Notes under the pieces: model-generated
The model's input: only the letters and a program-made list of their open reading frames with translations
What the model was told of the DNA's origin: nothing
Database searches by the model: none
NCBI GenBank assembly: GCA_001789205.1
Contig: MFYT01000039.1
Coordinates: forward strand, 85,295 to 149,294
DNA length: 64,000 bases
Origin: Candidatus Raymondbacteria bacterium RIFOXYA2_FULL_49_16
GTDB lineage: Bacteria > Fibrobacterota > OXYB2-FULL-49-7 > XYB2-FULL-49-35
Reading direction: 5' to 3'
Program-made: the position numbers and the translations under genes
Shown here: one piece after another, positions 6,788 to 63,169 of the stretch
Layout: the number at the start of each line of letters is the position of its first letter
How positions within the stretch are numbered: position 1 is the stretch's first letter

Positions 6788-8392
6788 TCAACCGGTTCTG
6801 TATTTACTGGGGCTTTTTCCGGTCATTTTCTTGAAATTTCTAAGAAAAATGTCAGGATCTGAGTACCCGACCTTATACGATATCTCTGTAATTGAATCAT
6901 TGGAAGAACGAAGCATGTCGCACGCTTTTTCTATCCTGACCTCCCGCAGTTGTTCCATCGGCGACTTGCCGGTGACTGTCTGATATATGGTAAGCAGGCG
7001 CCTGGGGCTTAGTCTGACAGTCCGGGCAATGGACTTGCTGCCCAGTTCCTCGTGGAAATGGGCGGATAAGAAGCTGTCTACTTCAGTGACAATGCTTTTC
7101 CAGTTATCGGGTACAATCCTGAATCTCTTTCTCCATGCCCTGGCCCCCAGGAGTGCGATGGCAACAGCCAGCACACTAGCGCCAACGAAGATCCGAGCCT
7201 TGGAATTGTCCCTGATCGTGAATTCGGTTTTGGGAAAATCAAGCACTTCGCCATTTTCACGCACCAGATATCCTTCAAAGGACCACCCGCCTTTCACCAT
7301 TTTATCATTCAGGACCAGGGGGAGGAGTATTTCACCGGATCCAGGGGAGAGGTCAAGCATGCTGACTGCTATTGCCGAGGTGAAAAAACGATCAGCCAGA
7401 CTATCTTTTTTTAACGCGATGAACTCATTGCTCCCCCGTCTATATTTGAAATAGAGGTCTTGGGTCTCGCTGTTGATGCTGAAGGTAAGGTTGGAGGTTT
7501 CGTCAAAAGGGCCGAACCGGTTGCCGCGATCTCCCGTAAAAATGTCCGCGTGCGCGTTCAGGTCAATGTAGCATTTTTTGGACACCGGAGGTAAGCGCAG
7601 GCGCAGGAACACGGTGTCTCCGCGGCGGAATTCGTGGTTGTCCTGCCGCGGGCGGACAATGTCCATTGCAAGCCCTTCGTGGACACGGCGGGCAGATGAT
7701 ATGATGAAATGGTCGATATCCATGGAAGCAATGCCGAATTCCCGAGCTGTTTTTTTACAGCGGAATTCGATGTACTGATAGTGGCCCACGGGCCGACTCA
7801 GTTCAATTTTCCGGTTTCCGGCCGGGAGCCCATCGATAAAAAGCGAGTCCTCGATTGTTGCGCCGTCCACGCGGATGAATATATCAATGGATATCCATTG
7901 GGAAAGACGCACCAGCGCCAGGCCTGTGTCGGGAATGGTCCAGGTGCGTCCTTTTCCATTGGGCCGCATGAGCAGGAGAAGTCCCGGGGTCCCGTCCGCG
8001 GTTTTCCGCAGGACAAGGCCAGGCGTGGTAAAGGGACTGTCGATTTTGCTTACCACGCGGAACCCCAGAAGGGTCAGGTGCGATGCAGTCGTCTGCGCTG
8101 GCAGTGTGCCGTTTGCCCGGTTCAGACGCATGGCAAAATGACAATACAGGCCCTTGACAAGCTCCGGAGAGGAACCGGTAAGCATGAGCGTCCGTGCCGC
8201 GACCCAGTCTGAATCGGCGCTGATGCGAAGTCCGGACGTGCCCCTGAATGCGGCCTTTTTTGTCACGGCAACGTTCCCCTGGGCCCAGCCGTTGATGGTG
8301 AAACCAGCCGAAACTTCCACGGAATCTTCGAAGTCTTCGGAGAAATAGACAGTGTCCGCGGCATGAGGAAGCGCGGTGAAGAAAAGAACCAT
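6788..8392 (-). CDS. Membrane-anchored AraC-family regulator (extracytoplasmic sensor domain, one TM, C-terminal AraC HTH)
   Basis: C-terminal AraC HTH 'ITEISYKVGYSDPDIFLRNFKKMTGKSPSKYR'. TM 'IFVGASVLAVAIALLGARAW'. About 400-aa N-terminal domain behind a signal-like start 'MVLFFTALPHAA'. The six-frame ORF extends to 8620 but has no signal peptide there. Confidence 0.7.
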   Translation of the reverse strand: MVLFFTALPHAADTVYFSEDFEDSVEVSAGFTINGWAQGNVAVTKKAAFRGTSGLRISADSDWVAARTLMLTGSSPELVKGLYCHFAMRLNRANGTLPAQTTASHLTLLGFRVVSKIDSPFTTPGLVLRKTADGTPGLLLLMRPNGKGRTWTIPDTGLALVRLSQWISIDIFIRVDGATIEDSLFIDGLPAGNRKIELSRPVGHYQYIEFRCKKTAREFGIASMDIDHFIISSARRVHEGLAMDIVRPRQDNHEFRRGDTVFLRLRLPPVSKKCYIDLNAHADIFTGDRGNRFGPFDETSNLTFSINSETQDLYFKYRRGSNEFIALKKDSLADRFFTSAIAVSMLDLSPGSGEILLPLVLNDKMVKGGWSFEGYLVRENGEVLDFPKTEFTIRDNSKARIFVGASVLAVAIALLGARAWRKRFRIVPDNWKSIVTEVDSFLSAHFHEELGSKSIARTVRLSPRRLLTIYQTVTGKSPMEQLREVRIEKACDMLRSSNDSITEISYKVGYSDPDIFLRNFKKMTGKSPSKYRTG

Positions 8393-8820
8393 CAGAAGGG
8401 CCGCGAGGATTTTTAACTTAGTTGAACAATAAGGACACACGAGTCTCTCAAAGAAAGAATCAATATGTTTCCAACGAAACGACTTACTTTTACTGGAAAT
8501 ATTGCTCCCAGCGTTGTATGTGGTGGTTATCAAATGATCACAAAGGGGCATTTGATTAGGTTCAACATTCAGGAGATCCCTTACCTCATTCCAATGCACA
8601 AAACTTCTCCTTGCTATCAAAGGCCTTTAAAAGAGAACTATGACATCAATCCTTATTTCTTTTCATCAGTTGAACTGTATCCTACAAATCCACGATACTC
8701 AACTTCCCTTCCCGCCACAACCCAATCCTGTTTCTGACTATTTTTTTTGCATGATACAGCGCCTTGTCCGCCCTTTAGAGCGCAACAGCACAACTCCTCC
8801 CTTAGAGTAATAGTATGGTT

Positions 8821-9201
8821 TTATGCTGCCTGTGCGCGTGAATGCCGTACTCTGCGTGACCTCCCCCGCGAATGCCGAGACGCGGGTGGATGCACTGTCC
8901 CTGTCCGTTTTATGCTTATCGCGACTTTATGCCCGGTTGCATTGGCGACCTTCCAAAGCGTGGAAAGCCGGATATCTTCGCCATGGTTTTCTAATTTGCT
9001 GACCGCTTGTTTGGTAATATGAATGAAATCTGCAAGCTGTTCTTGATTTAATCCTGAATCTTCCCGGAATTGCTTCAGTAAAACGGATATTTTGAAGGTC
9101 TGGAGGCCTATGTCATAATTTTTCCATCCTTCAGGATCTTTTGCCTTCAATTCTTCAAGGTGCGCCAAGGCGTCATCATTGTAATGGAGATTCTTTTTCA
9201 T
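8821..9201 (-). CDS. HTH XRE-family antitoxin (HigA-like)
   Basis: Cro/C1-type HTH 'LNQEQLADFIHITKQAVSKLENHGEDIRLSTLWKVANATG'. Lies 15 nt downstream of a Gp49/HigB-like toxin gene. Confidence 0.6.
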   Translation of the reverse strand: MKKNLHYNDDALAHLEELKAKDPEGWKNYDIGLQTFKISVLLKQFREDSGLNQEQLADFIHITKQAVSKLENHGEDIRLSTLWKVANATGHKVAISIKRTGTVHPPASRHSRGRSRRVRHSRAQAA

Positions 9202-9216
9202 ATTTGCTCCCGCTAT

Positions 9217-9528
9217 TTATTTCTGTTTCCTCAACAAATGGTCTTTCTTTCTCTGTTCCGCAGTCTCGATTTCCTTAACAGGTGTTTTCTGAGTCTTCTT
9301 GGTAAAAGCATGCGCTAATACAAGAAAGTTTCCCGCTTCGAAAAAGCCCAGGAAACGGAAAATATCTCCTCCATATTCTACCCGAACCTCCCATAAACCA
9401 CTAGTCCCTTCCATTTTCTCAAAAAATTTGCCGGGAACCCTTTCGAAATTACGGACAATGTCAAACACATAAAGGCACTTTTCCTGTTGTTCACGGTGTA
9501 AGCTGTCAATAAAAATCTTGACCGGCAT
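9217..9528 (-). CDS. Type II toxin, RelE/ParE superfamily (phage Gp49-like / HigB-like)
   Basis: 103 aa. Motifs 'LWEVRVEYGGDIFRFLGFF...FLVLAHAFTKKTQKTPVKEIETAEQR' are characteristic of the DUF891/Gp49 killer proteins encoded upstream of XRE antitoxins. Confidence 0.65.
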   Translation of the reverse strand: MPVKIFIDSLHREQQEKCLYVFDIVRNFERVPGKFFEKMEGTSGLWEVRVEYGGDIFRFLGFFEAGNFLVLAHAFTKKTQKTPVKEIETAEQRKKDHLLRKQK

Positions 9529-9741: not shown

Positions 9742-10719
9742 CTATTTTTTTCGCGCAACCTCGGACGGGAGCATGCCGAACCGGTGCCTGAAGAGTTTGG
9801 CGAAATACGATGAATGGTTGATGCCAACGCGATAGTGGACCTCGGTCACATTCATGTCCGTGGTCTTCAGTAATTCCATGGCCTTGTCGATCCGGAAATC
9901 ATTCAAATATTGGATGAAATTCGTTCCCGTGTCTTTCTTGAAAATCTTGCCCACGTAATCCTCGCTTAGGCCCGCGAAGCGCGCAAGGTCAGAGAGGGAA
10001 ATTTCCTCGGCATAATGGTCGCGGATGCAGGCCATGGCCTTGTTGGTCACAGCGCTGAACTGCTTTGGCACAACAGGGACTTGTTTTTTTCTTTTCCAGC
10101 GCAGCAAAATAGCAATGAACGCAATGACTGTGGCTGCCACAGGTATGGCCTTTGACCAGGGGATTTTGTGCTGTTTGGGCGCAGTTGTTAGAGGCGCCAG
10201 GGAGTCTCCTGGTACACTATCCGAAGTCTTGAGCGCGATCATGTCTATTTTAGCGCCAACCTCTTTGACTCTAAGAGAAAGCAGATGTTTTCCAAGTTTT
10301 TCAACAATGAAATATGGGGTATTTTTATGGCAGCCGTCGCCGCAGCTTACCTTGGTGGCCCATTGCCATGAGTCCTTTTTATAAAAATAGAGCCCATCTG
10401 TGTAATCTGGATTGTCCGGATTTTTGTTATCAAGCGTGACAAATACCCCGTTATCTCCTGGATTTGTTGCCCAAGTCCTTAAAAAAAGGTAATAGGTGTC
10501 AGCCACAGGCATATCGATGGTGTATTCAATTCTGCCCCTGCTTTCGTAGATGCCGGCAGAAACAATGTATTTTCCTGACGAGGCGTTTTTATACGCGCGT
10601 TCAATGGCCCACCCTGAATTATCGATTCGATTGTAGGTTTCAGCTTCAATGAACAGAGAATTTGTGTCCACGGCATGCAAGACACTGCAAGCAATGAAAA
10701 CGCAGGAAATTACCTTCAT
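9742..10719 (-). CDS. Membrane-anchored AraC-family regulator with N-terminal carbohydrate-binding-module-like sensor domain
   Basis: Signal peptide. 'FIEAETYNRIDNSGWAIE...SGKYIV' resembles CBM6/35-like galactose-binding folds. TM 'AATVIAFIAILLRW'. C-terminal AraC HTH 'MNVTEVHYRVGINHSSYFAKLFRHRFGMLPSEV'. Confidence 0.7.
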   Translation of the reverse strand: MKVISCVFIACSVLHAVDTNSLFIEAETYNRIDNSGWAIERAYKNASSGKYIVSAGIYESRGRIEYTIDMPVADTYYLFLRTWATNPGDNGVFVTLDNKNPDNPDYTDGLYFYKKDSWQWATKVSCGDGCHKNTPYFIVEKLGKHLLSLRVKEVGAKIDMIALKTSDSVPGDSLAPLTTAPKQHKIPWSKAIPVAATVIAFIAILLRWKRKKQVPVVPKQFSAVTNKAMACIRDHYAEEISLSDLARFAGLSEDYVGKIFKKDTGTNFIQYLNDFRIDKAMELLKTTDMNVTEVHYRVGINHSSYFAKLFRHRFGMLPSEVARKK

Positions 10720-10745: not shown

Positions 10746-11993
10746 CTCAAAAATGCGTGAAAAAATGCCTTTTCCCTTCTTAAAAATAATATTTCTCCTC
10801 TGGAACCATGTATAAAGAAAAGAATAAAATCTTCTCCGTGAATACCGCCCTAAAAGTATATTATTCACGGGATGCCGAAATCGATTCAAAAAGTACGGTT
10901 TTCATTCGAGGAAACGGGCCTAACCCACTTTGGCGGGATGTGGCTTATTCAGAGTTTTTGCAAGTTGCTCGGTTTACGCCAGCGTCTTTACGATTATGTT
11001 CGACGTCCCCAAAGAAACCACTTTTACAGTTCCACCGAGTTCATTCTGGCGTTGCTTTATTCCATAATCATGGGACTTCGACGTATCAACAAGACTGATA
11101 TTCGATTTGGACTCTACGGTTATAGTCATTTACGGGGAGCAGCAGAAAGGGGCTGTTGGATACAATCCGAAGAAGCCCGGACGGAGGTCCTATCATCCGC
11201 TTCTATGTTTCGAGGCAAATTTTCAGGAATTCTGGCACGGCAGTCTTCGTCCTGGGAACACAGTGGCCATGACAGGAGCGATACCGTTCATTCGGCGGTG
11301 TCTGGAGAAAGTTTCTTCCACGATATCACGGAGCCGGATACGGTTTCGTATGGACTCTGGTTTTTATTCCAACCGCATCACCAACTATCTGGACGCGCTG
11401 GGATGCGGTTATGTCATTGTCGCCAAGGAATACGCGACCATCAAAGCGCCATGCGTACGCATGCCGGTTCAAAAAGCTCGGCAATGGGTGGGAGGCCGGA
11501 GAATTCTGGGAGAAAGTTCGGCATGTGGACAAGAAAGAGCGCCGTTTCGTTGTGGTGCGACGTCCCATTCCTTCCGACGAGGAGGAGAACCGGCAACTGA
11601 CCTTGTTTAAGCACCAGAAATATGTGTATCATGTTTTCGTGACCAATCTACCGATCAGTCCATGGCGAGTGTATCTGTTTTACAGTCCGCGAGCAACCAT
11701 CGAGAAAAACATACGGGAACTCATGTACGATTACCCCTTGGGCAAGATACCGACGAAAGATTGGACGGCAAATGTGGCGTTCTTCCAGTTGGTTTTGTTT
11801 GCGGCAAATATCGCTCACTGGTTCAAACGCCTGTGTTTGCCCGAGGATTATCACTACCAGAAGGAATTTCTTCAGGCATTCAAAACAATCGAAGGGTTAC
11901 GGTTACCAGGAAATTTTCGAATTTGCAAAAGACCCGAGAGGTCTCTCTCTATGAAAGACCCGAGAAAATAAGTGTTTTCACGCATTTTTGAGG
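10745..11993 (+). mobile_element. IS1380-family-like insertion sequence (about 1.25 kb) with 19-bp terminal inverted repeats and a frameshifted transposase
   Basis: Left inverted repeat CCTCAAAAATGCGTGAAAA (10745-10763) is the perfect reverse complement of the right one TTTTCACGCATTTTTGAGG (11975-11993). The interior encodes a DDE transposase in three frames. Confidence 0.7.
10872..11971 (+). pseudogene. DDE transposase (IS1380/IS4-like), disrupted by at least two frameshifts
   Basis: Three overlapping ORFs (10872-11600, 11107-11610, 11411-11971) together reconstruct one transposase. Contains 'GYNPKKPGRRSYHPLLCF', 'FRMDSGFYS', 'VVRRPIPSDEE...HVFVTNLPISPWRVYLFYSPRATIEKNIRELM'. Confidence 0.7.
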
Positions 11994-14965: not shown

Positions 14966-16030
14966 TTAATTATTTGCTGATGGAAACCAGTGGGTTGTAC
15001 GGTTTGCTATTCTCACCAGAGTCAACATGACCGGGACCTCAACCAGGACGCCAACGATTGTCGCCAACACCACAGGAGACGAGGTACCGAATAAAGATAT
15101 AGCTACGGCAACAGAAAGCTCAAAAAAATTGGACGCGCCAATCATACCGGCCGGTGCGGCTATATTGTGGCACAGTTTTAATTTTTTGCTACCAAGGTAA
15201 GCGATGAAGAAAATCAGGAAAGTCTGGATTGTCAACGGAATAGCGATTAGAACAATATGCAAGGGCTTGTTTACAATAACATTCCCCTGGAAAGAGAAAA
15301 TGATAATTAGGGTCAGCAGGAGACCGCCAATCGTCGCATTGTTGAACTTTTTAATAAATATGTTGATGAAATACTCTTCTCCTTTTGCCTTAATGACGCT
15401 TGTCCTGGTCAGTATTCCTCCCACCAACGGAATCACTACAAAAAGCAGAACAGACATTAATAATGTGGCCCAGGGAATGGTTATTCCACCGATTCCAAGC
15501 AGCAGTGCAACGATCGGGGTGAATGCAAACAAAATAATGAGATCGTTGGTTGCCACCTGAACAACCGTATAGGCTGGATTTCCCCTTGTCAAATGACTCC
15601 ACACGAAAACCATGGCCGTGCACGGCGCTGCACCCAGAAGAATTGCTCCTGCAAGATATTCCTTGGCAAGATAGGCCGGAATCAATGCCTTAAAAATTAC
15701 AAAAAAGAAGAACCAGGCTATTGCATACATGGTAAAGGGCTTGATTAACCAATTAGTCACCCACGTTATATACAGCCCCTTTGGATTTTTTCCCACATTC
15801 TTTATGCTAGCAAAATCGACCTTCATCATCATGGGATAAATCATAAGCCAAATCAGGATCGCAATCGGAATGGAGACATTAGCATATTCAAATTGGCCTA
15901 GAAAGGCGGGGATGCCCGGTAAAAACTTGCCGATGAGCACACCGGTTATCATGCAAAGGATGACCCAAAGTGTCAGATACTTTTCAAAGAAACCAATACC
16001 CACGGTTTTATTTTCCGCCATACGTTTCAA
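14966..16030 (-). CDS. acr3: Arsenite efflux transporter, ACR3 family
   Basis: 354 aa and 10 TM. ACR3-type N-terminus 'GIGFFEKYLTLWVILCMITGVLIGKFLPG', with the conserved Cys in TM4 context 'LLGAAPCTAMV'. Confidence 0.8.
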   Translation of the reverse strand: MKRMAENKTVGIGFFEKYLTLWVILCMITGVLIGKFLPGIPAFLGQFEYANVSIPIAILIWLMIYPMMMKVDFASIKNVGKNPKGLYITWVTNWLIKPFTMYAIAWFFFFVIFKALIPAYLAKEYLAGAILLGAAPCTAMVFVWSHLTRGNPAYTVVQVATNDLIILFAFTPIVALLLGIGGITIPWATLLMSVLLFVVIPLVGGILTRTSVIKAKGEEYFINIFIKKFNNATIGGLLLTLIIIFSFQGNVIVNKPLHIVLIAIPLTIQTFLIFFIAYLGSKKLKLCHNIAAPAGMIGASNFFELSVAVAISLFGTSSPVVLATIVGVLVEVPVMLTLVRIANRTTHWFPSANN

Positions 16031-16046
16031 GACTCCTTTCCACGGT

Positions 16047-16490
16047 TTATAGGGTATTCAAAATATCCGGAAGCTTTTCCACAAATCCTCGAATCTCGTC
16101 CCGGACCCTGCTATAATGGATGAGCGCTTCCTCTTCTGTTTTGGCGTTTTTGGCCAGGGAAGGGGGATCGTCAAACCCCATGTGCATATGTCTGGCTTTA
16201 CCGGGAAAAAAGGGGCACGCCTCGCGCGCATTATCACACAAGGTAATTACGTAATCAAAGGGGACAGACATAACTTCGGTCATGTCCTTTGACCGTTGAA
16301 GCGATATGTCAATTCCATTTTCCGCCATTGCACGAACGGCACGGGGATCGAGGCCGTGTGCCACGACGCCAGCGGAATAGGGTTCAATTGACTCTCCTTT
16401 CAGGTGGCGCGCAAGACCTTCTGCCATCTGGCTCCGGCAGGAATTTCCAGTACAGAGAAACAGTATTTTTATCTTTTTGGTTTCGGGCAT
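16047..16490 (-). CDS. arsC: Arsenate reductase, LMW-PTP (thioredoxin-coupled) type
   Basis: P-loop 'ILFLCTGNSCRSQMAEG'. Start taken at 'MPETKKIKILF'. Confidence 0.75.
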   Translation of the reverse strand: MPETKKIKILFLCTGNSCRSQMAEGLARHLKGESIEPYSAGVVAHGLDPRAVRAMAENGIDISLQRSKDMTEVMSVPFDYVITLCDNAREACPFFPGKARHMHMGFDDPPSLAKNAKTEEEALIHYSRVRDEIRGFVEKLPDILNTL

Positions 16491-16825
16491 ATGTTGTCCT
16501 TGATACTTTTTGGAATGCGCACCCCGCAGCACGAATCCTTGTCAACGCAGCGGCCAAGATGGTTTGAAAGCCATTCCAGGATACTTTTGACAGCCGGGGT
16601 TGTTCCCTTCTTTGCCAGTTTATAGTAAATCCATTTTTCATCCCTGCGGCTTTCCACCAGACCTGCGGCCTTAAGTATGCTCATGTGCTTTGATACGGTC
16701 GAAGGCGCAAGCTTCAGGAACTCCACAATCTGGCACACGCACACTTCACGGCCACAAAGCACCATCAGGGCCTTGATCCTGTTTTCATCAGAGAGCGCTT
16801 TGGCTATTGAAACAATTTCTTTCAT
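16469..16825 (-). CDS. arsR: ArsR/SmtB family transcriptional repressor
   Basis: Winged HTH containing 'ELCVCD'-like 'EVCVCQIVEFL...STVSKHMSILKAAGLV'. Confidence 0.75.
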   Translation of the reverse strand: MKEIVSIAKALSDENRIKALMVLCGREVCVCQIVEFLKLAPSTVSKHMSILKAAGLVESRRDEKWIYYKLAKKGTTPAVKSILEWLSNHLGRCVDKDSCCGVRIPKSIKDNICPKPKR

Positions 16826-16833
16826 AAATATCC

Positions 16834-17649: not shown

Positions 17650-17720
17650 TTATTATTTCGTTATTTCGACACATAACGAAATATACAAGATTCGGAAAGC
17701 AAAATCAAGCTCTCTGGTTC

Positions 17721-18881: not shown

Positions 18882-18888
18882 CCCCTGT

Positions 18889-19626: not shown

Positions 19627-19642
19627 GGTCTATTCCTTTTCC

Positions 19643-21578: not shown

Positions 21579-21631
21579 GAAATATTTCCTTTTGTGTTAA
21601 ACATAATGCCGTTCATTTTGTTTCTTTAAGT

Positions 21632-22881: not shown

Positions 22882-22894
22882 TATTTTTAAAACC

Positions 22895-27524: not shown

Positions 27525-27558
27525 CCTTCTATGCAATAGAAAGAGAGGATTGTGCGCC

Positions 27559-29841: not shown

Positions 29842-29853
29842 AGGAGGTAATAT

Positions 29854-51161: not shown

Positions 51162-51668
51162 ATGAGCTTTTTTAAGATCATGAGTGTCTTTGCTATCTGC
51201 GCCGGCTGCATAGGCTGCGCCGGCCGCCGGGAACAAACAGTGGCCCCTGATTTTCTTCTGAATGATCTGCAGGACCGGAGATTTTATCTGAGCAGCTGCA
51301 AAGGAAAGGCCGTGCTTCTGAATTTCTGGTCTACTCATTGCGCACCCTGCATGGAAGAAATGCCCCATTTGGAAAAACTCTATGGGGAATTCTCGAAACA
51401 GGGAGTGGTGTTTGCGGGAATATGCATTGATCCGGCGGAAGCAGGATATCTGGAAACGCTGGTACATGGTCTTGGCGTCACGTATCCTGTGCTTGCCGAT
51501 ATTTCAGGCCGGACAGCGGCGCTGTATGCGGTAACAGCCGTACCCGTAACCATTATCATCTCTCCGGAGGGTATGATACACAGCAGAACAACAGGATATA
51601 GGGAAGCGTATATACAGCGTTTCAGAGAACAGCTTGCCTCTCTGACAGGCGCATCCGGGACACCATGA
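51162..51668 (+). CDS. TlpA/ResA-like thiol-disulfide oxidoreductase (AhpC/TSA-redoxin fold)
   Basis: Lipoprotein-like signal 'FAICAGC'. 'LLNFWSTHCAPCMEEMP' contains a CxxC. Confidence 0.65.
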   Translation: MSFFKIMSVFAICAGCIGCAGRREQTVAPDFLLNDLQDRRFYLSSCKGKAVLLNFWSTHCAPCMEEMPHLEKLYGEFSKQGVVFAGICIDPAEAGYLETLVHGLGVTYPVLADISGRTAALYAVTAVPVTIIISPEGMIHSRTTGYREAYIQRFREQLASLTGASGTP

Positions 51669-53233
51669 AGCGTTTCATTGTAACCAGTGCCCTTGCATGC
51701 GTCCTTGTCGCCGGACCCAAAGCCGCATCTGAATTTCTTATCAGGCCTTTTGTCCAATCCATAACCAAGGAGTCCGCCGCTATCTGCTTCTCTCTGCCGA
51801 ACGATGCTGTTTCGCGCACGGTAATCGGCACGGCCGACAACGCTGAAACAGCCGTTTATACGGCGCATGAATCCTTAGTAAAAGCGCGTTTCACCGGTCT
51901 TAACCCGGAAACGAAATATTATTATACTGTTTCAGTCAATGGTACAGAACTTCTATCGCCGCCAGGAGAGTACTATTTTTTTACCGGATCCGCGGCATTG
52001 GAAACGCCGGTGACCATCGCGGTATATGGTGATACGCGCAGCGGCGAGGAAAGTTTTGATCTTGACCATCGGTCGGTCGTGGAAAGCATACGTCATTATT
52101 CGTCTCCCGATCTTCTCCTGCATACCGGAGATGTGGTCAATACGCAGGATCCCGAAGGGTGGAACCGGTTTTTTCACATCGAACATGAGCTTTTAAAAAA
52201 CACGCCGCTATATCCGGTACGGGGCAACAGTGACGGCGACCGGACTGATATCCTGCATATGTTCGCGCTTCCCGGAGATACCACCTGGTATTCCTTCTCC
52301 GCGGGACCGGTATACTGCATCGCCCTTGATCTGCAGAATAATATGACCGACAGCTATTATGCAAAACATATCGGCCCCGCAAGCGATCAGTGGAACTGGC
52401 TGACTCGCATGCTGGCCTCTGATGAACGGAAACGCTGCCCGTTTACACTGGTCTATTTTCACGCCCCGCTTTTCCCTCCGGATGACGAAACCAGCCCGGC
52501 AATGAAAGACCATCTTGTTTCACTGTTTGAAAAAAGCAATGTGGACCTTGTAATCAACGGCCAGCACTATTTTTCGTATGCCCAGCGGAATGGCGTAACC
52601 TATATGATAAGCGGCGGCGGGGGCGCCCTCCTTGACCGGTATCAGGCCAAACGATCAGCGTCGGTACGGGTGTATGAACCTGTTTTTCACCATCTGCGGA
52701 TCACGGCAAACTATCCCGCGCTCACCATAGAAGCGGTAGACAATGCGGGAACCGTCTTCTTCTCGCATTCCATTATCGCCTCTTCGCCTTCCCCGGGAAA
52801 AGAACAACCCCAGCCGGGCCTCACCGAAAACAGGATACCACTGCATATTTTCGGCAGTAGTGGCTGCGCCGAATGTGATTTACTTAAAAACGTGCTGCTT
52901 CCTGAAATTGAAAAGTCGCTCGCGCCCTATACCTTCTCCATTACTTTCTATGACACTGATATTCCCGAACACTATGAGCGGTTTCTCGTGTACGAGTCCC
53001 GTCTGGGCGACCGTAAGCACACCCTTCCTGCACTGTTATATGCCGACAGAATCCTGAGCGGCCCTGAACTTGACCTGCTTTCCCTGAAAGAGTTTTTTAA
53101 AAGCCGCGTCATGAGACAGGATAAAAACAGCGTCAAATCCCTTGGTTCCGAGAGGTATCCGATGTATCTTTATTTTATATTGGTTGCCGCAGGCATAGGG
53201 TTGTTCGTGTTTATTAAGAAAAGGAACGGATAA
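51665..53233 (+). CDS. Membrane-anchored purple-acid-phosphatase-like metallophosphoesterase with a thioredoxin-fold C-terminal domain
   Basis: Signal peptide. PAP N-terminal domain 'KYYYTV'. Metallophosphoesterase motifs 'AVYGDTRSG','HTGDVVN','RGNSDG','YFHAPLF'. 'GSSGCAECDLL' contains a CxxC. C-terminal TM 'MYLYFILVAAGIGLFVFI' followed by a KKRNG tail. Confidence 0.65.
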   Translation: MKRFIVTSALACVLVAGPKAASEFLIRPFVQSITKESAAICFSLPNDAVSRTVIGTADNAETAVYTAHESLVKARFTGLNPETKYYYTVSVNGTELLSPPGEYYFFTGSAALETPVTIAVYGDTRSGEESFDLDHRSVVESIRHYSSPDLLLHTGDVVNTQDPEGWNRFFHIEHELLKNTPLYPVRGNSDGDRTDILHMFALPGDTTWYSFSAGPVYCIALDLQNNMTDSYYAKHIGPASDQWNWLTRMLASDERKRCPFTLVYFHAPLFPPDDETSPAMKDHLVSLFEKSNVDLVINGQHYFSYAQRNGVTYMISGGGGALLDRYQAKRSASVRVYEPVFHHLRITANYPALTIEAVDNAGTVFFSHSIIASSPSPGKEQPQPGLTENRIPLHIFGSSGCAECDLLKNVLLPEIEKSLAPYTFSITFYDTDIPEHYERFLVYESRLGDRKHTLPALLYADRILSGPELDLLSLKEFFKSRVMRQDKNSVKSLGSERYPMYLYFILVAAGIGLFVFIKKRNG

Positions 53234-54162: not shown

Positions 54163-56211
54163 TTATCTTAGCAGCACCGCGCGCTTGGTATACACAATTC
54201 CATTGACGCATATGCGGATTATGTACGTTCCGGATGGCATGTTTCGGGCGTTCCAGGTGTATGCGTGCGTACAAGCGGTATTCACAGTACGTTTATTGTA
54301 CAGGAACGAGGTCCCCGCATTGTGTACGCATACGCCTTGCACATTATAAATGCGCAAGGTTGGGCTGGTTGCGGCGGGTAATCCATTTGTTGGATCAGGT
54401 GATAAACCCGCCCCAATAAATATGGATATCACCATAACTGGATTAAACGGGTTTGGTTCCACTGTTACAGCCATATCATTCTGCGTTGAGGCCGATATGC
54501 CCGCTCCGGTTGTTCCTCCGCACGAGCTTTTGTCTTCGGGCGTATTATAATCGGCAGAATAAAACCACACTTCCTGTGGAGCAACAAGCGTATCATTACC
54601 TGAATAGAGTTCAAGATCAAAGGACAGGTCAGAGCTTGTAGAGCTCACCTGATGGACCTCTGCCGCAATGACATTCCCGCCATTCCGGAAATGCGATATA
54701 AAAGAGGTGATGTCGTTGACCGCGAATGCCGATCCCTCGTGATCTCCGGAAGCAAAAGTGCTGTACGTCACTTCACCCGGAAGCATGGATCTGCGGGCGA
54801 TCTCGTATCCATTCAAATAGACCACAACACCATCATCATATTTTACTCCTAGCGAACAGGACGAAAAGGCGGACGCATCATCAATAAAAAAACTTTTCCT
54901 GAAATAGGCCGCATCCACATGAGGTATCACGGTGTTTTCGTCCCCATCGCCATAGCCGATTTCAGCCGTCCCCGTTGACCAGCTTCCATCGTCATATCCC
55001 TGGTCTTTCCATGTAACGGTATAACAGAGTGTGTCAATGGTAAAAGTAATAACACGGCTTGTATCCATCACATTGCCTGAATCATCGACCGCGCGCACAT
55101 AGAAGGTATATGCCATGTCATTTTCCAGAGAAAGAGTTGTTGTATGGATTTTTGCGCCCTCTCCGGTGACAAACTGATTGGCCATTTCATAATAAGATTG
55201 GTCGGACATGCTCCAGCGAACAAAGGCGTTTTCCTGCGTCTCAACCAGCACTATCACTTCCGTGGTGTTTACGGTACCCGATGGTTTGCTATCTGTAACA
55301 TACGGCGCCAATGAATCGGGGCCTAGTATCCAGTAATCGGTCATGGCCCAGGAATCATTATTAAAAGGGCAGGCCACCGTCATAAATCTCAGATTTGCCC
55401 CATCAACCTCGACATATACAATAGTATTATTATTATCACCACCCGTAATGCCCAAGGCGCCCGCGTCAATCTGGTATATGCCTCCGGGTTCATCCGGATA
55501 GCACAGACCGTCAAACGCACAGGCGGAATGGGGGTCAAGCACCCTCATTCTGCAGAAGGAATGGGTATGTCCGACCATAATACCCTTGACTTTTGTACCG
55601 TGTGAAAGCAGCATGTTCCACAGATCGTCCGCCCAGGCAGCTGGTGGTCCGGCATATCTTCCGCGGGGAAACGCCGGACCATGAAATGAAATGAATACAT
55701 GATCTGCGAAATCCGCATCCGTGATCAGGCTGTCCATCCAGTTGATCCAGGTTGCCTGACCAAGCCCGGAATACTGGTCAAAAACAATGATTCTCACGTT
55801 TTTCCAGTCCACGTAATAATTACACCTGTTGTCTCGCAGGACAACACTGTCAAGAGACGGGAGTATTGTATCGAGCATAAGGTCAACATCAGCAGGGGTC
55901 TCGTCATCATGATTACCCATGACCGGATAATAGGGGGGCGCCTGGTATTGCGGATCCTGTACGATGCCCCAGTTTTCATTTGCCAGGTCCAGATCACCGG
56001 CAGCGACAATGAATTCCGCTTTGGGAAATGGAACGGTCTCGTTAATGGTCATATCCCTGATTTCGGTGAGCATATACCGTACGCCAGTATGCCATCCGCA
56101 ATTGTCGGCCACAAGTGCAAAGGTCCACTTTTGGCAGAATGCCGACACTGTCAGAAGATATATACAAAGTGTTATAAGGATGTGCTTCATACTATATTGA
56201 TTCAGCCTCAT
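54163..56211 (-). CDS. T9SS-sorted secreted purple-acid-phosphatase-like metallophosphoesterase (paralog of the ORF at 4364)
   Basis: 'AAGDLDLANENW','MGNHDDE','GHTHSF'. Shared domain 'YTFYVRAVDDSGNVMDTSRVITFTIDT...GYGDGDENTVI'. C-terminal sorting domain 'VEPNPFNPVMVISI'. Confidence 0.7.
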   Translation of the reverse strand: MRLNQYSMKHILITLCIYLLTVSAFCQKWTFALVADNCGWHTGVRYMLTEIRDMTINETVPFPKAEFIVAAGDLDLANENWGIVQDPQYQAPPYYPVMGNHDDETPADVDLMLDTILPSLDSVVLRDNRCNYYVDWKNVRIIVFDQYSGLGQATWINWMDSLITDADFADHVFISFHGPAFPRGRYAGPPAAWADDLWNMLLSHGTKVKGIMVGHTHSFCRMRVLDPHSACAFDGLCYPDEPGGIYQIDAGALGITGGDNNNTIVYVEVDGANLRFMTVACPFNNDSWAMTDYWILGPDSLAPYVTDSKPSGTVNTTEVIVLVETQENAFVRWSMSDQSYYEMANQFVTGEGAKIHTTTLSLENDMAYTFYVRAVDDSGNVMDTSRVITFTIDTLCYTVTWKDQGYDDGSWSTGTAEIGYGDGDENTVIPHVDAAYFRKSFFIDDASAFSSCSLGVKYDDGVVVYLNGYEIARRSMLPGEVTYSTFASGDHEGSAFAVNDITSFISHFRNGGNVIAAEVHQVSSTSSDLSFDLELYSGNDTLVAPQEVWFYSADYNTPEDKSSCGGTTGAGISASTQNDMAVTVEPNPFNPVMVISIFIGAGLSPDPTNGLPAATSPTLRIYNVQGVCVHNAGTSFLYNKRTVNTACTHAYTWNARNMPSGTYIIRICVNGIVYTKRAVLLR

Positions 56212-56299: not shown

Positions 56300-58675
56300 T
56301 TAGTTTAGCAATATCAATTTTTTTGACATCATTACCTTGCCATTACAATGAACTTTTAATACATATATGCCTGCCGGCATATCAGATGCGTCCCATACGG
56401 CTGTTAACGAGCTTTTTATTGCCGCAGTTACTGAAGCAATCGAAGCAACCCTCCTCCCTTTTACATCAAACACGTCAAATCGCGGGGTGGCATTCTTGCC
56501 GTTAGGATTTTGCATTATAAAGCCCATGTTTTTAATCGATATTGTTGTTGATGGATTGAAGGGGTTTGGAGAAACGTCAACCCCTATGTCCGATAAAAAC
56601 CCGTTAGAAGTATATGCCTCAGTAACAAGATCCGGGGGCATGCAACCCTCGTCATGATAGGACCATTCGCTCTCAAGACCAAACAGATCGCTGTTGTTTA
56701 TTGCCAATCTGGCGGCAAAGGTAAAAAAAGTATTATTGGCCGGTTTTTTATGCACTTCTATTGCCAGGGTATTTGTTCCGTTTATTAAAAGATCTGAATA
56801 TTCTGAAATATCCGCATTTAAAAACAACCATCCTGCCGTATCAGCGGCCCAGGTGTCGTATGTCACCGGCCCTTCGGACATTTCAGCCCTCAGCACTTCG
56901 CGGCCGTTAAGATATGCCACCGAACCATAATGCAAATTCTGGTACAGCTGCAACCTGGTCACCTCGGAAACATCAGGTATGTTAAAAAGTTTCACGAAAT
57001 ATGCCGCATTTATCCCTGATGCAAGAGGCGTATTGCTGCTGTAATTACCGAAACGGGCCAGCCCGGCGCTCCAGCCGGGTCCGGTGGTAGTATAACCTGG
57101 ATTTTTCCATTGCGGTCCGCTAATGGAAGTGTCATAGACAAAGGTAATGATCTCAGGGGCTGATTCATTGCCCGAATCATCTTTCGCGCGTAGATACACT
57201 GTTTTGGTGGTTGAATATTGACAATCAACATTTGCCGTATGAACAACACCGCCGGTAATGGTAAACATATTTTCCATCTCTGCATACGATCGGTCTTCGA
57301 GGTCCCACTTTACTGTGGCATTTTCATTCGTTGCTGCCATAAGCTCCGCAGGACAGGCATGTATTACTCCTCGAGGCCCGGCCGAGACAAAGCGCGGGTC
57401 ATAATAGTCGTTTGTGTCCGCCAGAAACGTAATGACCGCGGACGTGTCCATTATATTTGGCGTTGGTTCATCATCAGCCGCCCGGATATAAAGAGTCTTT
57501 GTTTCCCCCTGCAGACAGGTAATGACCGTGCTGTGTAAAACGTCTCCGGTAATAGAAAATGTATTGGCCATACTGCCGTATTCCTGGTTGGTATAGCTCC
57601 ATTTTACCGTAGAGTTCTCATTCGTATTTACTGTAATGACCGCATCAAGAGATCGTACGGTATCAATCATGGACAGGCCCGGAGAAAAAACGGTAAAATA
57701 AGGCGCCTCCCTGTCCGGTGCGTCATTTACCGTCCAGAGATTCGCTATCTGCCAATCAGGATCATCGGCCTCCCAATTCCACAGACCTTTTTTCACCATA
57801 AAAGTAACGCTGTCATCATCAACCTGGATCCAGACAATTCCCATTCGCGGATCGTTCATTGCTATGCCGACATGTCCTGGATCTATCTGCCATATGCCGT
57901 CATCTTCATGCGCCCTGATATCAGTCCTCTCCGCGGTCTCATAACATCCGGTATCAGTTGCGCAGGGTCCGTCAGGATCTTTTATACGAAGAATATCGTA
58001 CCAGTGGGTGTGGCCCACAAGAACACCTTTAACTTTATTGCCGTGAGAGATAAGCATGTTCCAGAAATCTGGGACCCAGCTCCCTCTGCCTTCGATTGAT
58101 GTATGGCGCTGCCGTGCAAATGCGGGACAATGAAAAGCGATAAAAACATGTTTATTATTACCGGCTCCCGCAATCATGCTGCTGACTGAGTCTATCCAGC
58201 CGGTTTCTCCCCAGAAAGCGGTATACTGATCAAGGACAATCAGGCGAACGTTTTTCCAGTCTACATAATAGTTAAGGCCATCGCTAAAAACCGTCGTGCT
58301 GTCCTGCTTAACAAGAATGGAATCAACCATATATTCAACACAGGTCACGCCGCTCACTGCCGAACACCCTGATTCAACATCATGGTTCCCGTTAACAGGG
58401 AAATAGGCAACGCCATTGCTGTTGGCCCTCACCACATCATATAGAAGGCTATCTCCCACGGAGCTTGCTAGGCTAAGGTCGCCCCCAGCCACAATAAACT
58501 CAGCTTTCGGAAACGCAGGAGATGTATTTACCGTAGCATTAGTCAGTTCTTTGCAGGCCCATCGTACTGGTTTTTCACTGGTCAGATTATCGGCATAATA
58601 ACCGAAGCTCCATTTTTCACCAAACGCAACGGTGCTCAATAGAAGAATAATTGTAATCAGCAGGTAATTTGTCAT
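56300..58675 (-). CDS. T9SS-sorted secreted metallophosphoesterase with duplicated beta-sandwich domains (paralog of the ORFs at 4364 and 54163)
   Basis: 'VAGGDLSLAS','NGNHDVE','VGHTHWY'. Two 'TITGxVxHST' repeat domains. C-terminal sorting domain 'VSPNPFNPSTTISIKN...KVMMSKKLILLN'. Confidence 0.7.
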   Translation of the reverse strand: MTNYLLITIILLLSTVAFGEKWSFGYYADNLTSEKPVRWACKELTNATVNTSPAFPKAEFIVAGGDLSLASSVGDSLLYDVVRANSNGVAYFPVNGNHDVESGCSAVSGVTCVEYMVDSILVKQDSTTVFSDGLNYYVDWKNVRLIVLDQYTAFWGETGWIDSVSSMIAGAGNNKHVFIAFHCPAFARQRHTSIEGRGSWVPDFWNMLISHGNKVKGVLVGHTHWYDILRIKDPDGPCATDTGCYETAERTDIRAHEDDGIWQIDPGHVGIAMNDPRMGIVWIQVDDDSVTFMVKKGLWNWEADDPDWQIANLWTVNDAPDREAPYFTVFSPGLSMIDTVRSLDAVITVNTNENSTVKWSYTNQEYGSMANTFSITGDVLHSTVITCLQGETKTLYIRAADDEPTPNIMDTSAVITFLADTNDYYDPRFVSAGPRGVIHACPAELMAATNENATVKWDLEDRSYAEMENMFTITGGVVHTANVDCQYSTTKTVYLRAKDDSGNESAPEIITFVYDTSISGPQWKNPGYTTTGPGWSAGLARFGNYSSNTPLASGINAAYFVKLFNIPDVSEVTRLQLYQNLHYGSVAYLNGREVLRAEMSEGPVTYDTWAADTAGWLFLNADISEYSDLLINGTNTLAIEVHKKPANNTFFTFAARLAINNSDLFGLESEWSYHDEGCMPPDLVTEAYTSNGFLSDIGVDVSPNPFNPSTTISIKNMGFIMQNPNGKNATPRFDVFDVKGRRVASIASVTAAIKSSLTAVWDASDMPAGIYVLKVHCNGKVMMSKKLILLN

Positions 58676-59970: not shown

Positions 59971-60741
59971 ATGGAAAAAGAATTACTATCGATTGGTGAA
60001 ACAAGCAAGCTGATAGGCATATCTATCGATACTATCCGGCGCTGGGAAAAGGATGGGATGCTGAAATCATTCCGGCCATCGCCAAGCGGTAACCGGTATT
60101 TCCGCAAAAAGGACATTACTGCTTTTCTTGCAAGGGAAAATCCTTTGGCAATCGGTTCCCTGGCGGGAAAAGCACGGGATTGGGTACTTGGTGCAACACC
60201 GGCCCCGCTTCCATCAACATTGCATTGCGAAACGAGCGATATCTTTAATGCGCGTCTCACCCTATTCGGACATGAGATCGGAAGCCTTCCGTATCTAAAG
60301 GATATTTTTCCGCTTGTCGTGGCAATTGCAGGTGAAATAGGGAACAATTCATACAACCATAATCTGGGAAATTGGCCCGATATGCCCGGCGCTTTTTTTG
60401 GCTACAATTTGTCAGAAGGCCTGGTTATGCTGGCAGACCGGGGGCAGGGGGTCTATGCGACGTTAAAACGTGTTTTGCCCGATTTGAAGGATGACAAGGA
60501 CGCGCTTGACGTTGCATTCACGCAGCACGTCTCGGGCCGTGCGCCTGAAAACCGGGGAAATGGATTGAAATTTGTCAAGGATGTGGTTCTGGCCAACCCC
60601 TTATCGCTTCAGTTCGCATCGGGTTCCGCTGAACTGATATTGAACCGTGTGCCGGGAAAAATGGAAAACATTGAGGCCGGGGTTCCGGTTCACGGATGTC
60701 TGGCTCGTATCGTTTTTCCTCGGAAAGGAATTAATCCATGA
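59971..60741 (+). CDS. MerR-type HTH fused to a GHKL/HATPase_c-like (anti-sigma-factor-kinase-like) domain
   Basis: MerR HTH 'LSIGETSKLIGISIDTIRRWEKDGML'. C-terminal 'LADRGQGV' (G1-like) and 'NRGNGLKFV' (G2-like). The stop overlaps the next start. Confidence 0.55.
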   Translation: MEKELLSIGETSKLIGISIDTIRRWEKDGMLKSFRPSPSGNRYFRKKDITAFLARENPLAIGSLAGKARDWVLGATPAPLPSTLHCETSDIFNARLTLFGHEIGSLPYLKDIFPLVVAIAGEIGNNSYNHNLGNWPDMPGAFFGYNLSEGLVMLADRGQGVYATLKRVLPDLKDDKDALDVAFTQHVSGRAPENRGNGLKFVKDVVLANPLSLQFASGSAELILNRVPGKMENIEAGVPVHGCLARIVFPRKGINP

Positions 60742-61016
60742 AAATCCAGGTGGGCAAATTCGGGACCATGCTTTTCGCGCGACCGGCTGGCAAAGAGGCT
60801 TTTCTGGCATTGCAACCCCTGCTCAGAGGCATGGACGATTCCGAGGAGGTTGTGGTTGATTTTTCCGATGTCGCCGTGATGACCCCATCGTGGGCCGATG
60901 AATTCGTGACCCCTTTGCGGAGTCAATTTCAGGGGCGCGTGCGTCTGCTGAATACGGAGAATCCTTCTGTCAAAGCAACGCTTGAGACACTTAAAAAGGC
61001 TTGCCGACGGCCATGA
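60738..61016 (+). CDS. STAS-like (DUF4325-type) small protein, putative partner of the HATPase domain
   Basis: 92 aa. 'EEVVVDFSDVAVMTPSWADEF' matches the DUF4325/STAS pattern. Translationally coupled on both sides. Confidence 0.5.
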   Translation: MKIQVGKFGTMLFARPAGKEAFLALQPLLRGMDDSEEVVVDFSDVAVMTPSWADEFVTPLRSQFQGRVRLLNTENPSVKATLETLKKACRRP

Positions 61017-63169
61017 CCATGGCACGCGGCATCCTGCAGGTTCTATTGATTGTTCTGACATGCATGACTTTTATTCCGGCAAGCGTTCTAAAAAATTCTT
61101 TTTTCACCTCCTCATTTGAAAGCGGCCCTGCCCTTATACAAGAGTCTTCGGTACAGAACAAAAAGAGTATGCTATACGAAGCCAGCGGCTTGGACCAATG
61201 GGTTTCACAGAATGGCCAGGGTTGGATTACTGTGCCGGAAAATATCGAACCGGTTTACTTTACCTATGCCCGTAGAACCGGAAATGTTTTCCAAGGCGTT
61301 TCCGGTCTCACGGGAAAATGGTCGGAATATTCAGAGGTGCGGACACGTGGATTCTACGGATGGGATGATATACCCACGGCCTGCGTGTCGCTTGTCCAGG
61401 GTATCCATGGACCAGGAGCCGCAAAGATCACCTTTCATACCAGCGACAAATATTGCCACCTTTTTGCCGCCATTCAGCCTCGAACAGAGTTGTACGGACG
61501 CTTTTACGTCAGGGTGTCCGAAGAGGCGATCAACTCGCTGTCAAAAGACCACGCGATTGCATGGTTCTACGAGCATATGTCCGACATTCACGGCCATTTC
61601 CGTATCGGGTGCGTGTTCCGGAACAATGAACCGGTTTTGTGTGCGCGGTTCCATATTTATACTGGAACGGAGAATGAGAAGCATGATGTGTATATGTACG
61701 GAAAAAATGCCGTTATTTCCGGGCAGGATTACTGTGTGGAGTTTTATTATCAGTGTGAATCCGACAACACCGGAGGTGCGCGTTTCTGGATAGATGGCGT
61801 GCTTGCGGCCGACAGTGCACGGTATCGTCTCCGGAACATGGGTGCTGTACAGCGCGTTCATTTCGGCGCTTTTTCGCGGGCAAAGTTTGATACCGGAAAT
61901 ATCATTATCGACGATATCGCATTTTCCAGCGAACGCGTTGGCCCTATCCCAGGGGTCGATTCCCTTTCTTTCCAGGACAATGTTTTTTCCCTGTTCTCTC
62001 GCGACCCATATATCCACATGCAGGTTCAGGCCGTGGATTCGTGCGTTCCCTGGTTTTTGGCTGGTTTCAACAGCGGGATTCTGAAAAAAGGAGACTCGCG
62101 ACTGTCCCATGCTTTAAACAACGCGGCTTTTATCAGGGCCCGTATACAAAACGCCTATGGGACCTGGAGCGAGTGGCGCGCTATCGCATCAGGCAGGAAC
62201 GTGGGTGCTTTCCCTCTCCAGAAGAGGGATTCCCTGGTGTGCGGCATTACGCTGACAGCGCTTGGAAAGGAAAAGCCTTTAAACTCGCTGCGGCCGGGCG
62301 AATGGGTCACGCTCCATATGAATTTTTCAGAGCTTCCCACGCGGGCGGATGTACTGTTGTCGCAATTCACCAACCGATCAGCATCGCTTCCTGGAAATTA
62401 CGGAAACGGTGATAAGAGGTCGAATTATTATTTTAGAATTTCATTGGGAGAAAGTCTTTTATGGACGCACAAGTTCGAAGGCGAAAGCGTGTTGTACGAG
62501 ATAAGCGGGCAAAAGCACGAGTATGTCAGGGACCATGGACTTGTCATAGACACGGTCGCCAAATCTATCTTGCTTACCTTCAGACTTTCTGACAGCGCAA
62601 AGACCGGGCCTTGGCTGTTGCAGGCTGTTGCCTATGATTCCATTGGGATGACTGGCGCAAAACCAATGCTGGTACCTTTCAACGTATCTGATATCCAAGA
62701 AGGAACAAAAAGAGTTCCCTTCGGGGGCATCGCGGTCATGATTGCGCTTGTCGTTGCCCTTGGCGCGGGCCTCATATTTGTTTTCAGAAAGGTACGTCCG
62801 GGAAAAACAGAGGGCGTGTCTTATTCAAGCAATCCGACTATACGACGGGCGCAGGAGATTATCAGCGAAGAGATCAGTAATCCAGCGCTTGATGTGGAAT
62901 TGGTTTCGGAAAAACTCAAGATAAGCAAAAGCAATCTCAGTTCGCAGTTTAAAAAAGAGACTGGACATTCGTTTCCTCAGTATTTAAATATGCTAAGAAT
63001 AGAAAAAGCAAAAGAATTGTTAAAAACATCAAATTTGAATGTTTCGGAAATAGCATTCCATGTCGGATACGGCACATATGAGCATTTCAACTATATTTTC
63101 AATCAGTATGAGAAGATACCTGCGAGCGAATTCCGCAAAAAAGCTGGCATGGAAAGGCTGAATAGATAA
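61013..63169 (+). CDS. Membrane-anchored AraC-family regulator with a large (about 570 aa) extracytoplasmic N-terminal domain
   Basis: Signal/TM 'GILQVLLIVLTCMTFIPA'. TM 'GGIAVMIALVVALGAGLIFVF'. C-terminal AraC HTH 'VSEIAFHVGYGTYEHFNYIFNQYEKIPASEFR'. The ATG overlaps the STAS gene stop (ATGA). Confidence 0.7.
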   Translation: MTMARGILQVLLIVLTCMTFIPASVLKNSFFTSSFESGPALIQESSVQNKKSMLYEASGLDQWVSQNGQGWITVPENIEPVYFTYARRTGNVFQGVSGLTGKWSEYSEVRTRGFYGWDDIPTACVSLVQGIHGPGAAKITFHTSDKYCHLFAAIQPRTELYGRFYVRVSEEAINSLSKDHAIAWFYEHMSDIHGHFRIGCVFRNNEPVLCARFHIYTGTENEKHDVYMYGKNAVISGQDYCVEFYYQCESDNTGGARFWIDGVLAADSARYRLRNMGAVQRVHFGAFSRAKFDTGNIIIDDIAFSSERVGPIPGVDSLSFQDNVFSLFSRDPYIHMQVQAVDSCVPWFLAGFNSGILKKGDSRLSHALNNAAFIRARIQNAYGTWSEWRAIASGRNVGAFPLQKRDSLVCGITLTALGKEKPLNSLRPGEWVTLHMNFSELPTRADVLLSQFTNRSASLPGNYGNGDKRSNYYFRISLGESLLWTHKFEGESVLYEISGQKHEYVRDHGLVIDTVAKSILLTFRLSDSAKTGPWLLQAVAYDSIGMTGAKPMLVPFNVSDIQEGTKRVPFGGIAVMIALVVALGAGLIFVFRKVRPGKTEGVSYSSNPTIRRAQEIISEEISNPALDVELVSEKLKISKSNLSSQFKKETGHSFPQYLNMLRIEKAKELLKTSNLNVSEIAFHVGYGTYEHFNYIFNQYEKIPASEFRKKAGMERLNR

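Follow-up and report, generated by a model that had tools for sequence, protein, structure and literature searches.

Four predicted single-pass AraC-type membrane regulators, three of them upstream of type 9 secretion system cargo genes, in a Candidatus Raymondbacteria genome

Transmembrane transcription regulators (TTRs), defined by a DNA-binding domain and at least one predicted transmembrane (TM) region, have been catalogued in a census of 50,302 proteins, 56% of which are single-pass (Demey et al. 2023, PMC10269533). Among their DNA-binding domains, HTH_18 ranks first, with 16,725 of the 50,302 proteins (33%). Because a receiver domain is present in only 4,642 TTRs of any type (PMC10269533), most HTH_18 members are not hybrid kinases. 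As for the sensors, CBM9_1 is found in three proteins and CBM_6, CBM_35 and GH115_C in none (PMC10269533). In this work, we analyzed a window of 64,000 nucleotides (positions 85,295 to 149,294 of contig MFYT01000039.1, assembly GCA_001789205.1) from the uncultured aquifer organism Candidatus Raymondbacteria bacterium RIFOXYA2_FULL_49_16, which encodes four such proteins, referred to as A, B, C, and D. Each has an AraC-type helix-turn-helix (HTH) domain identified by Pfam and a TM segment assigned from Kyte-Doolittle hydropathy and charge bias, and each falls within the TTR definition. We consider it fairly probable that A–D are membrane-anchored one-component AraC/XylS regulators and that A, C, and D, when a ligand binds in the periplasm, switch on the downstream cargo genes of the type 9 secretion system (T9SS).

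A precedent for such regulators dates from 2008. In the genome of Saccharophagus degradans 2-40, 16 of the 31 AraC regulators are membrane-bound; several of their genes adjoin cellulase or xylanase genes, and the regulators were proposed to detect extracellular polysaccharides (Weiner et al. 2008, PMC2386152). Two of the proteins, Sde_0324 and Sde_3613, have two predicted TM regions each, most of the others have six or seven, and 13 of the 16 are paralogues (PMC2386152). The likeness to A–D lies in the AraC HTH carried on a membrane protein, the lineage-specific abundance, the adjacency to genes for secreted polysaccharide-degrading enzymes, and the hypothesis itself, which is the same; the two TM regions of Sde_0324 and Sde_3613 also match a signal anchor followed by one TM segment. 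In contrast, S. degradans belongs to the Gammaproteobacteria and its regulators are mostly paralogous proteins with six or seven TM regions, whereas the HTH domains of A–D are no closer to one another than to soluble AraC proteins. Neither an ectodomain of the carbohydrate-binding module (CBM) type nor a link to T9SS is reported for S. degradans. As a class, the architecture is not unusual, given the prevalence of HTH_18 in the TTR census and the hypothesis already formulated for S. degradans. A–D represent a lineage-specific form of a class that is known and for which the hypothesis existed before; what they add are ectodomains of the CBM type or without relatives, the connection to T9SS, and the occurrence in a candidate phylum. 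We found no paper on an experimentally characterized single-pass AraC-type membrane regulator in the literature searched.

DNA-binding domain and predicted membrane topology

The four open reading frames were confirmed at 6788-8392 (A), 9742-10719 (B), and 44732-46243 (C) on the minus strand, and at 61013-63169 (D) on the plus strand. They are also called in more than 15 independent Candidatus Raymondbacteria assemblies, where each of the proteins is found on 15-18 contigs and is annotated as "hypothetical protein" or "HTH araC/xylS-type domain-containing protein". The matching scaffolds come from Rifle aquifer metagenome-assembled genomes, such as contig MFYW01000025 of GCA_001787835.1, and from ENA/JGI assemblies. 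Because the same proteins recur across independent assemblies, A–D are not assembly artefacts.

HTH_18 was found by Pfam at the extreme C-terminus of all four proteins with E-values of 4e-18 to 2e-21 and full model coverage, at 6794-7030 in A (E 1.7e-21), 9751-9987 in B, 44753-44986 in C, and 62906-63139 in D. The scores of 66-77 bits compare with a cut-off of 33.6 bits, model positions 1-79 of 80 are covered, and HTH_AraC also scores above its cut-off. The C-termini align end to end with the NCBIfam models of SoxS, MarA, and RamA and with the PDB structures of AraC, SoxS, and MarA. All four proteins therefore possess the C-terminal domain of ~100 residues with two helix-turn-helix motifs that is characteristic of the AraC/XylS family. 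An HMM built from the four C-termini detected no AraC HTH in any other open reading frame of the window, so that all AraC regulators of the 64 kb share one layout. Pairwise identities among the four HTH domains amount to 26-35%, reaching 41% over a shorter alignment of B with D. A recent origin of A–D as paralogues was rejected because soluble AraC and YesN proteins are just as close to these domains as the domains are to each other.

Pfam detected neither AraC_binding nor a cupin domain in A–D, the classical cytoplasmic module for ligand binding and dimerization in this family. In each protein, the N-terminal part follows a signal-like segment, and a TM helix stands between it and the HTH. 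The classical AraC/XylS type with a cytoplasmic N-terminal domain, which the first-pass annotation had named as the case against its own reading, was thus not recovered. The same annotation described the regulators as having no kinase or receiver. In agreement with this, HisKA, HATPase_c, and Response_reg gave no Pfam match at E≤0.1, and the TM segment is joined to the DNA-binding domain by only ~8-12 residues, as measured from the TM positions and the domain model coordinates.

These features place A–D next to, but outside, the hybrid two-component systems (HTCS) of Bacteroidota. HTCS proteins have the same order from an outer N-terminus to an inner C-terminus, with a periplasmic glycan sensor, a TM segment, and a C-terminal AraC HTH, and they control neighboring glycan-utilization genes. 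The best matches to the HTH domains of A–D include a C-terminal fragment of an HTCS protein (PDB 12AW) and an HTCS-like protein (P0170). A–D differ in lacking HisKA, HATPase_c, and a receiver, and hence a phosphorelay, so that they are not members of the HTCS group. The sensors differ as well: where HTCS proteins have a Reg_prop/Y_Y_Y propeller or the fold of a periplasmic binding protein, A–D have CBM-like or orphan beta domains. By analogy, A–D would functionally resemble HTCS proteins minus the kinase and the receiver.

Membrane topology was assigned from Kyte-Doolittle hydropathy, charge bias, and conservation in homologues rather than from TMHMM. All four proteins begin with a hydrophobic, signal-like segment and show exactly one additional hydropathy peak (2.0-3.3; 2.13 in A), located at ~7142-7198 in A, ~10102-10158 in B, 45098-45154 in C, and 62729-62785 in D. 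The peak is directly followed by a basic cluster, which reads RAWRKRFR in A and RWKRKKQ, RKVR, or RKVRPGK in the others. Four to six lysine and arginine residues flank the C-terminal side of the helix versus two to three on the N-terminal side, and by the positive-inside rule this bias puts the HTH on the cytoplasmic side of the membrane and the large N-terminal part on the other. The TM segment and the basic cluster are kept in the homologues of B, C, and D, and the AlphaFold model of D shows, with low confidence, a helix where the TM segment lies. Together, these features support a predicted topology in which A–D are N-out/C-in single-pass proteins with a cytoplasmic HTH. The common layout described in the first-pass annotation, with a signal, an extracytoplasmic domain, one TM helix, and a cytoplasmic AraC HTH, was thus recovered in all four reading frames, each with its HTH_18 domain and single TM peak.

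The predicted topology can be compared with that of ToxR, TcpP, and CadC, which are also single-pass one-component regulators of the membrane that sense in the periplasm and bind DNA in the cytoplasm. In ToxR the DNA-binding domain is N-terminal and the sensor C-terminal, whereas the order is reversed in A–D, and the DNA-binding domain of ToxR-type regulators is of the winged-helix OmpR type rather than the AraC type. No Trans_reg_C match was found by Pfam in A–D, which sets them apart from ToxR-like receptors. The description of A–D as topologically the reverse of ToxR is therefore apt, their DNA-binding domain being AraC-type and C-terminal. ToxR-type regulators also have much longer cytoplasmic linkers.

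Ectodomains of the four regulators

The ectodomains of A–D are mutually dissimilar, just as the first-pass annotation had called them non-homologous. B is a protein of 325 residues with a signal at residues 1-16 and an ectodomain at ~10159-10671. By itself, this ectodomain has no direct match in Pfam or the PDB. An exhaustive HMMER search identified 343 relatives at E≤1e-3, of which the five closest are small proteins with the identical layout of signal, ectodomain, TM segment, lysine/arginine cluster, and HTH_18. The remaining relatives are modules in large multidomain proteins that are matched in Pfam by GH115_C or, weakly, by CBM_6. A profile of 24 sequences of the B ectodomain family matches the CBM35 structures 3WNK (1.2e-5) and 2VZP (1.9e-4) and the CBM6 structure 1UXZ (5.6e-3). 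The earlier label of this ectodomain as CBM6/35-like is accordingly supported at the level of the profile only. The motif CG(D/E)(G/S)CH at residues 125-130 (window 10330-10347) is kept in five of the six ectodomains of the B family; it could form a disulfide or a metal site and would fit an oxidizing extracytoplasmic location. When the B family was used to scan GTDB species genomes, nothing was found, and a scan of JGI metagenomes returned only one contig, L006, and a single fragment of the present window.

The assignment is more direct for C, a protein of 503 residues with a signal at residues 1-24, followed by a beta-rich N-terminal segment that has no assigned family. A CBM9 domain occupies 45179-45706, where CBM9_1 scores 37.3 bits (E 3.4e-9) against a Pfam cut-off of 23.4 bits. 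In addition, a three-sequence profile of C matches the structure of the CBM9-2 module of Thermotoga maritima Xyn10A (1I82) with an E-value of 3.4e-6. C therefore contains a genuine CBM9 domain, which firms up the CBM9-like label of the first-pass annotation. Two homologues with an equal layout were found, P0002 (45% identity) and P0003 (33%).

A and D have orphan ectodomains. A comprises 534 residues when translated from the ATG at 8392, with an ectodomain at ~7199-8359; an in-frame GTG upstream, at 8440, would give a better signal peptide (MCPYCSTKLKILAALLMVLFFTALPHA). D comprises 718 residues and its ectodomain spans ~61088-62728 (~545 residues). Among 5.8 billion protein clusters, there was no homologue of the A ectodomain and a single homologue of D, P0020, with 62% identity. 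For both ectodomains, there was no Pfam match at E≤10 on fragments and no PDB match by phmmer, and hhalign against the family profiles of B and C returned nothing. Outside the HTH, A and D have no detectable relation to each other. The AlphaFold2 models are confident only in the HTH domains (predicted local distance difference test, pLDDT, ~70-85). The model of A, made from a single sequence, has a mean pLDDT of 33.2 and is unusable for the ectodomain fold, and that of D, made from an alignment of two sequences, has a mean of 42.6, at which the fold of the ectodomain is not credible. The fold that the first-pass annotation could not place in D, where it counted about 570 residues, still has no Pfam, PDB, or profile match. 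The TTR census gives no function for single-pass AraC-type members, and A and D depart further from it in having ectodomains that lack a family. Carbohydrate sensing by these two regulators is conjecture.

A CBM-type module in a membrane-bound sensor has a counterpart in the RsgI anti-sigma factors of Clostridium thermocellum, which are reported to carry CBMs and to sense extracellular polysaccharides (PMC10328401, PMC12203970). RsgI proteins are likewise single-pass, use an extracytoplasmic CBM-type module to sense polysaccharide, and control genes for secreted enzymes. Their output is different, consisting of sequestration of a sigma factor and proteolytic signaling by a protein of N-in/C-out orientation in a Gram-positive host. 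The only cytoplasmic domain found in A–D is HTH_18 and the predicted polarity is opposite, so that A–D are not of the RsgI type.

Gene order, T9SS cargo, and intergenic DNA

Cargo of T9SS type A was recognized by its C-terminal sorting domain (TIGR04183 or PF18962), with a cut-off of 23 bits for TIGR04183. Seven of the ten proteins tested score above this cut-off. The products of the genes starting at 4364, 42983, and 54163 lie below it with 17-19 bits, and their C-terminal ~85 residues are homologous to those of the others by BLAST. A, C, and D are each located directly upstream of genes with such a T9SS C-terminal domain on the same strand. The statement in the first-pass annotation that every regulator sits next to T9SS cargo thus holds for A, C, and D and fails for B, and it also fails for the particular genes that were named for D. 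Approximately 8 of ~52 genes (~15%) encode T9SS cargo, and by our own arithmetic from these gene counts the chance of at least three of four regulators being followed by cargo is ~0.01, a figure that is suggestive but not overwhelming. A search of the gaps between regulator and cargo revealed no intrinsic terminator on the coding strand. A domain shared by sensor and cargo was considered and rejected, as no ectodomain is similar to any neighboring protein.

The candidate target of A is a calcineurin-like phosphoesterase gene with a T9SS C-terminal domain (4364-6619, minus strand; Metallophos E 1.8e-11), which follows A on the same strand after a gap of 168 bp. Its Por_Secre_tail match is below the cut-off and its C-terminus is homologous to other T9SS C-terminal domains. 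The neighborhood also includes a PAP2 gene (3572-4297) and a B12-radical SAM gene (2295-3569). Four paralogous calcineurin-like phosphoesterases, including the one after A, are present in the 64 kb, at 4364-6619, 51665-53233, 54163-56211, and 56300-58675. Three of the four have T9SS tails (31-40% mutual identity), one adjoins the PAP2 and B12-radical SAM genes, and together they may constitute a secreted phosphate-scavenging set.

C is followed after 93 bp by the gene at 42983-44638 on the minus strand, its candidate target, which encodes an Sde_0182-like protein (DUF1593, nucleoside-hydrolase-like) that ends in a T9SS C-terminal domain. The product matches Sde182_NH-like with an E-value of 5.7e-42 and PDB entry 2YHG with an E-value of 6.7e-72, and its C-terminal domain is similar to that of other cargo. 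The gap between the two genes contains a perfect 9-nt inverted repeat, GAATTCACA-N9-TGTGAATTC, at 44693-44719. It overlaps the -35 element of a weak sigma-70-like match, in a setting where promoter-like matches number at chance level, and as a candidate operator it is a lead only.

D precedes an array of five tandem cargo genes on the plus strand, the first of which begins at 63350 and continues past the window end at 64000 (array at L004 12338-18811). All five score above the TIGR04183 cut-off. The first-pass annotation had paired D with the phosphoesterases at 54163 and 56300, which are on the opposite strand and are separated from D by GntR, MerR, and DUF4325 genes; this pairing must be replaced by the five-gene array. 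Three members of the array, d2, d3, and d4 (L004 13447-17562), form a family of T9SS cargo with 29-43% mutual identity, a weak DUF5005 match, and no relative in the PDB. A pectate-lyase-like beta-helix gene lies nearby. On the JGI metagenome contig L006 (JGI 3300025152, Ga0208373_1006192), the 62%-identical homologue of D is followed by a cargo gene (5287-7677) whose product belongs to the same family and is 47-50% identical to d3 and d4. This cargo family is therefore conserved downstream of D-type regulators, and its activity would hint at the ligand of D. Upstream of D itself lie a MerR-family gene (59971-60741) and, overlapping its end by 4 nt, a small DUF4325 gene (60738-61016), whose stop codon in turn shares 4 nt with the start of D at its ATG (61013). 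D looks translationally coupled to these two further putative regulators.

The surroundings of B are different. Between B and A lies a Gp49/HigB-like toxin gene paired with an HTH_3 antitoxin gene (8821-9528, minus strand), and on its other side B adjoins the remnant of a DDE_Tnp_1_4 transposase, a pseudogene split over three frames (10872-11971, plus strand). In the window, B stands beside this mobile-element debris at a distance of 50 kb from D. At L006 1810-5102, in a related organism, an orthologue of B (67% identity) is located 14 bp upstream of the orthologue of D (62%). This arrangement suggests that an ancestral B-D tandem was broken by rearrangement, and the two regulators possibly have a paired function.

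Two other gene clusters were observed in the window. On the minus strand at 14966-24190, genes for an SBF/ACR3-like transporter (14966-16030), a Methyltransf_31 protein (16834-17649), and an ArsP_1 permease (22895-24190) are found together with MacB/FtsX-ABC transporters, and this cluster may confer arsenic or metalloid resistance. On the plus strand at 25393-31121, TetR, DUF1302, MMPL, LolA-like, and DUF2147 genes possibly make up an export system for lipids or hydrophobic compounds.

Proposed mechanism, alternatives, and significance

In the mechanism that we favor, the signal sequence would export the beta-rich sensor to the periplasm and the single helix would span the inner membrane, holding a MarA/SoxS-sized DNA-binding domain with two HTH motifs in the cytoplasm ~8-12 residues from the membrane. 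A periplasmic ligand would then bind to the ectodomain. Modules of the CBM9 and CBM35 families recognize the ends of chains as well as small sugars, which makes glycan ends or oligosaccharides released by secreted enzymes plausible ligands for B and C. Binding may change how the ectodomain and the TM helix pack or how the protein oligomerizes, and the tethered DNA-binding domains would occupy sites at or next to the -35 element of nearby promoters and recruit RNA polymerase, in the manner of other one-component regulators bound to the membrane. Induction would presumably reach the phosphoesterase gene downstream of A, the gene for the Sde_0182-like protein behind C, and the array of five cargo genes that follows D. 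Because A, C, and D are positioned upstream of cargo on the same strand and one regulator-cargo pair is conserved elsewhere, substrate-sensing control of the neighboring secreted proteins by these three is a reasonable reading of the gene order. A more specific version can be imagined, namely a minimal glycan switch in which the ectodomain drives an AraC domain ~10 residues off the membrane through ligand-driven clustering, with neither phosphorelay nor proteolysis, and in which B and D types co-operate on a T9SS regulon in a candidate phylum. We give this version little credence; under it, B and D appear to have been separated here by the insertion of an insertion sequence and the toxin-antitoxin pair.

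Several observations weigh against the favored mechanism, the main difficulty being the linker, since ~10 residues leave little room for contact with DNA and polymerase at the membrane. The very short linker therefore keeps alive a model of regulated proteolysis, in which the membrane form is an inactive store and a signal received by the ectodomain leads to site-1 and then intramembrane cleavage, freeing a soluble, monomeric MarA-like activator. MarA/SoxS-type domains act as monomers that are controlled by abundance, but the predicted N-out/C-in orientation of A–D is opposite to that of the site-2 protease substrates RseA and RsgI. The polysaccharide sensors of the RsgI type signal via autoproteolysis followed by RseP cleavage, as described in the reports cited above (PMC10328401, PMC12203970), whereas neither a protease gene nor a SEA-like autoproteolytic domain was found beside the regulators described here. 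Moreover, the TTR literature describes regulators of the ToxR, TcpP, and CadC type as acting in the membrane, although cleavage-dependent activation is also reported for CadC. On balance, we regard release by proteolysis as unlikely.

A different set of observations concerns the ligand and the targets. No carbohydrate-binding signature was detected in the ectodomains of A and D, and A is surrounded by phosphoesterase, PAP2, and B12-radical SAM genes rather than by genes for glycoside hydrolases or other carbohydrate-active enzymes, which speaks against glycan sensing by all four. The ectodomains might instead monitor other envelope cues, such as phosphorylated compounds, T9SS cargo or surface polymers of the cell itself, or a partner protein, with the CBM-like folds serving as scaffolds, and the 14-bp spacing of the B-type and D-type genes on L006 hints at paired action. 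The bona fide CBM9 match in C, the CBM35/6 match of the B family, the weak DUF5005 match in the conserved cargo family of D, the pectate-lyase-like gene nearby, the GH1 gene in the window, and the GH2 gene in the scaffold flank (L012) all point the other way, and we find such non-glycan sensing doubtful. It could also be argued that the adjacency to cargo is a coincidence and that the regulators control distant genes or only themselves. Cargo is frequent in the genome, and five cargo genes in the window (31411, 33442, 40199, 54163, and 56300) have no such regulator nearby. B has no adjoining cargo gene, and the gene downstream of the C homologue P0002 is a different one, so that the link of C to its cargo is not conserved. 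No convincing operator motif is shared by the intergenic gaps; except for the 9-nt inverted repeat, their repeats are short, occur in two copies, and do not exceed chance level. Coincidence is nevertheless very improbable in our judgment, given that three of the four regulators precede cargo on the same strand (p ~0.01) and that the pairing of D with d3/d4 is conserved at 62% regulator identity.

The general idea of a membrane-bound AraC regulator that senses extracellular substrate is already known, and A–D are of value as definite cases that can be put to the test, not as a new principle. AraC-type proteins are the largest catalogued class of TTRs, for which A–D offer small and simple test cases. 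B in particular, which fits a CBM35-like module, a single helix, and a single DNA-binding domain into 325 residues, is suited to asking how binding in the periplasm reaches a tethered domain, and glycan biosensors could be built on its compact frame. For Raymondbacteria themselves, A–D suggest how the enzymes secreted through T9SS are matched to the substrates that are available.

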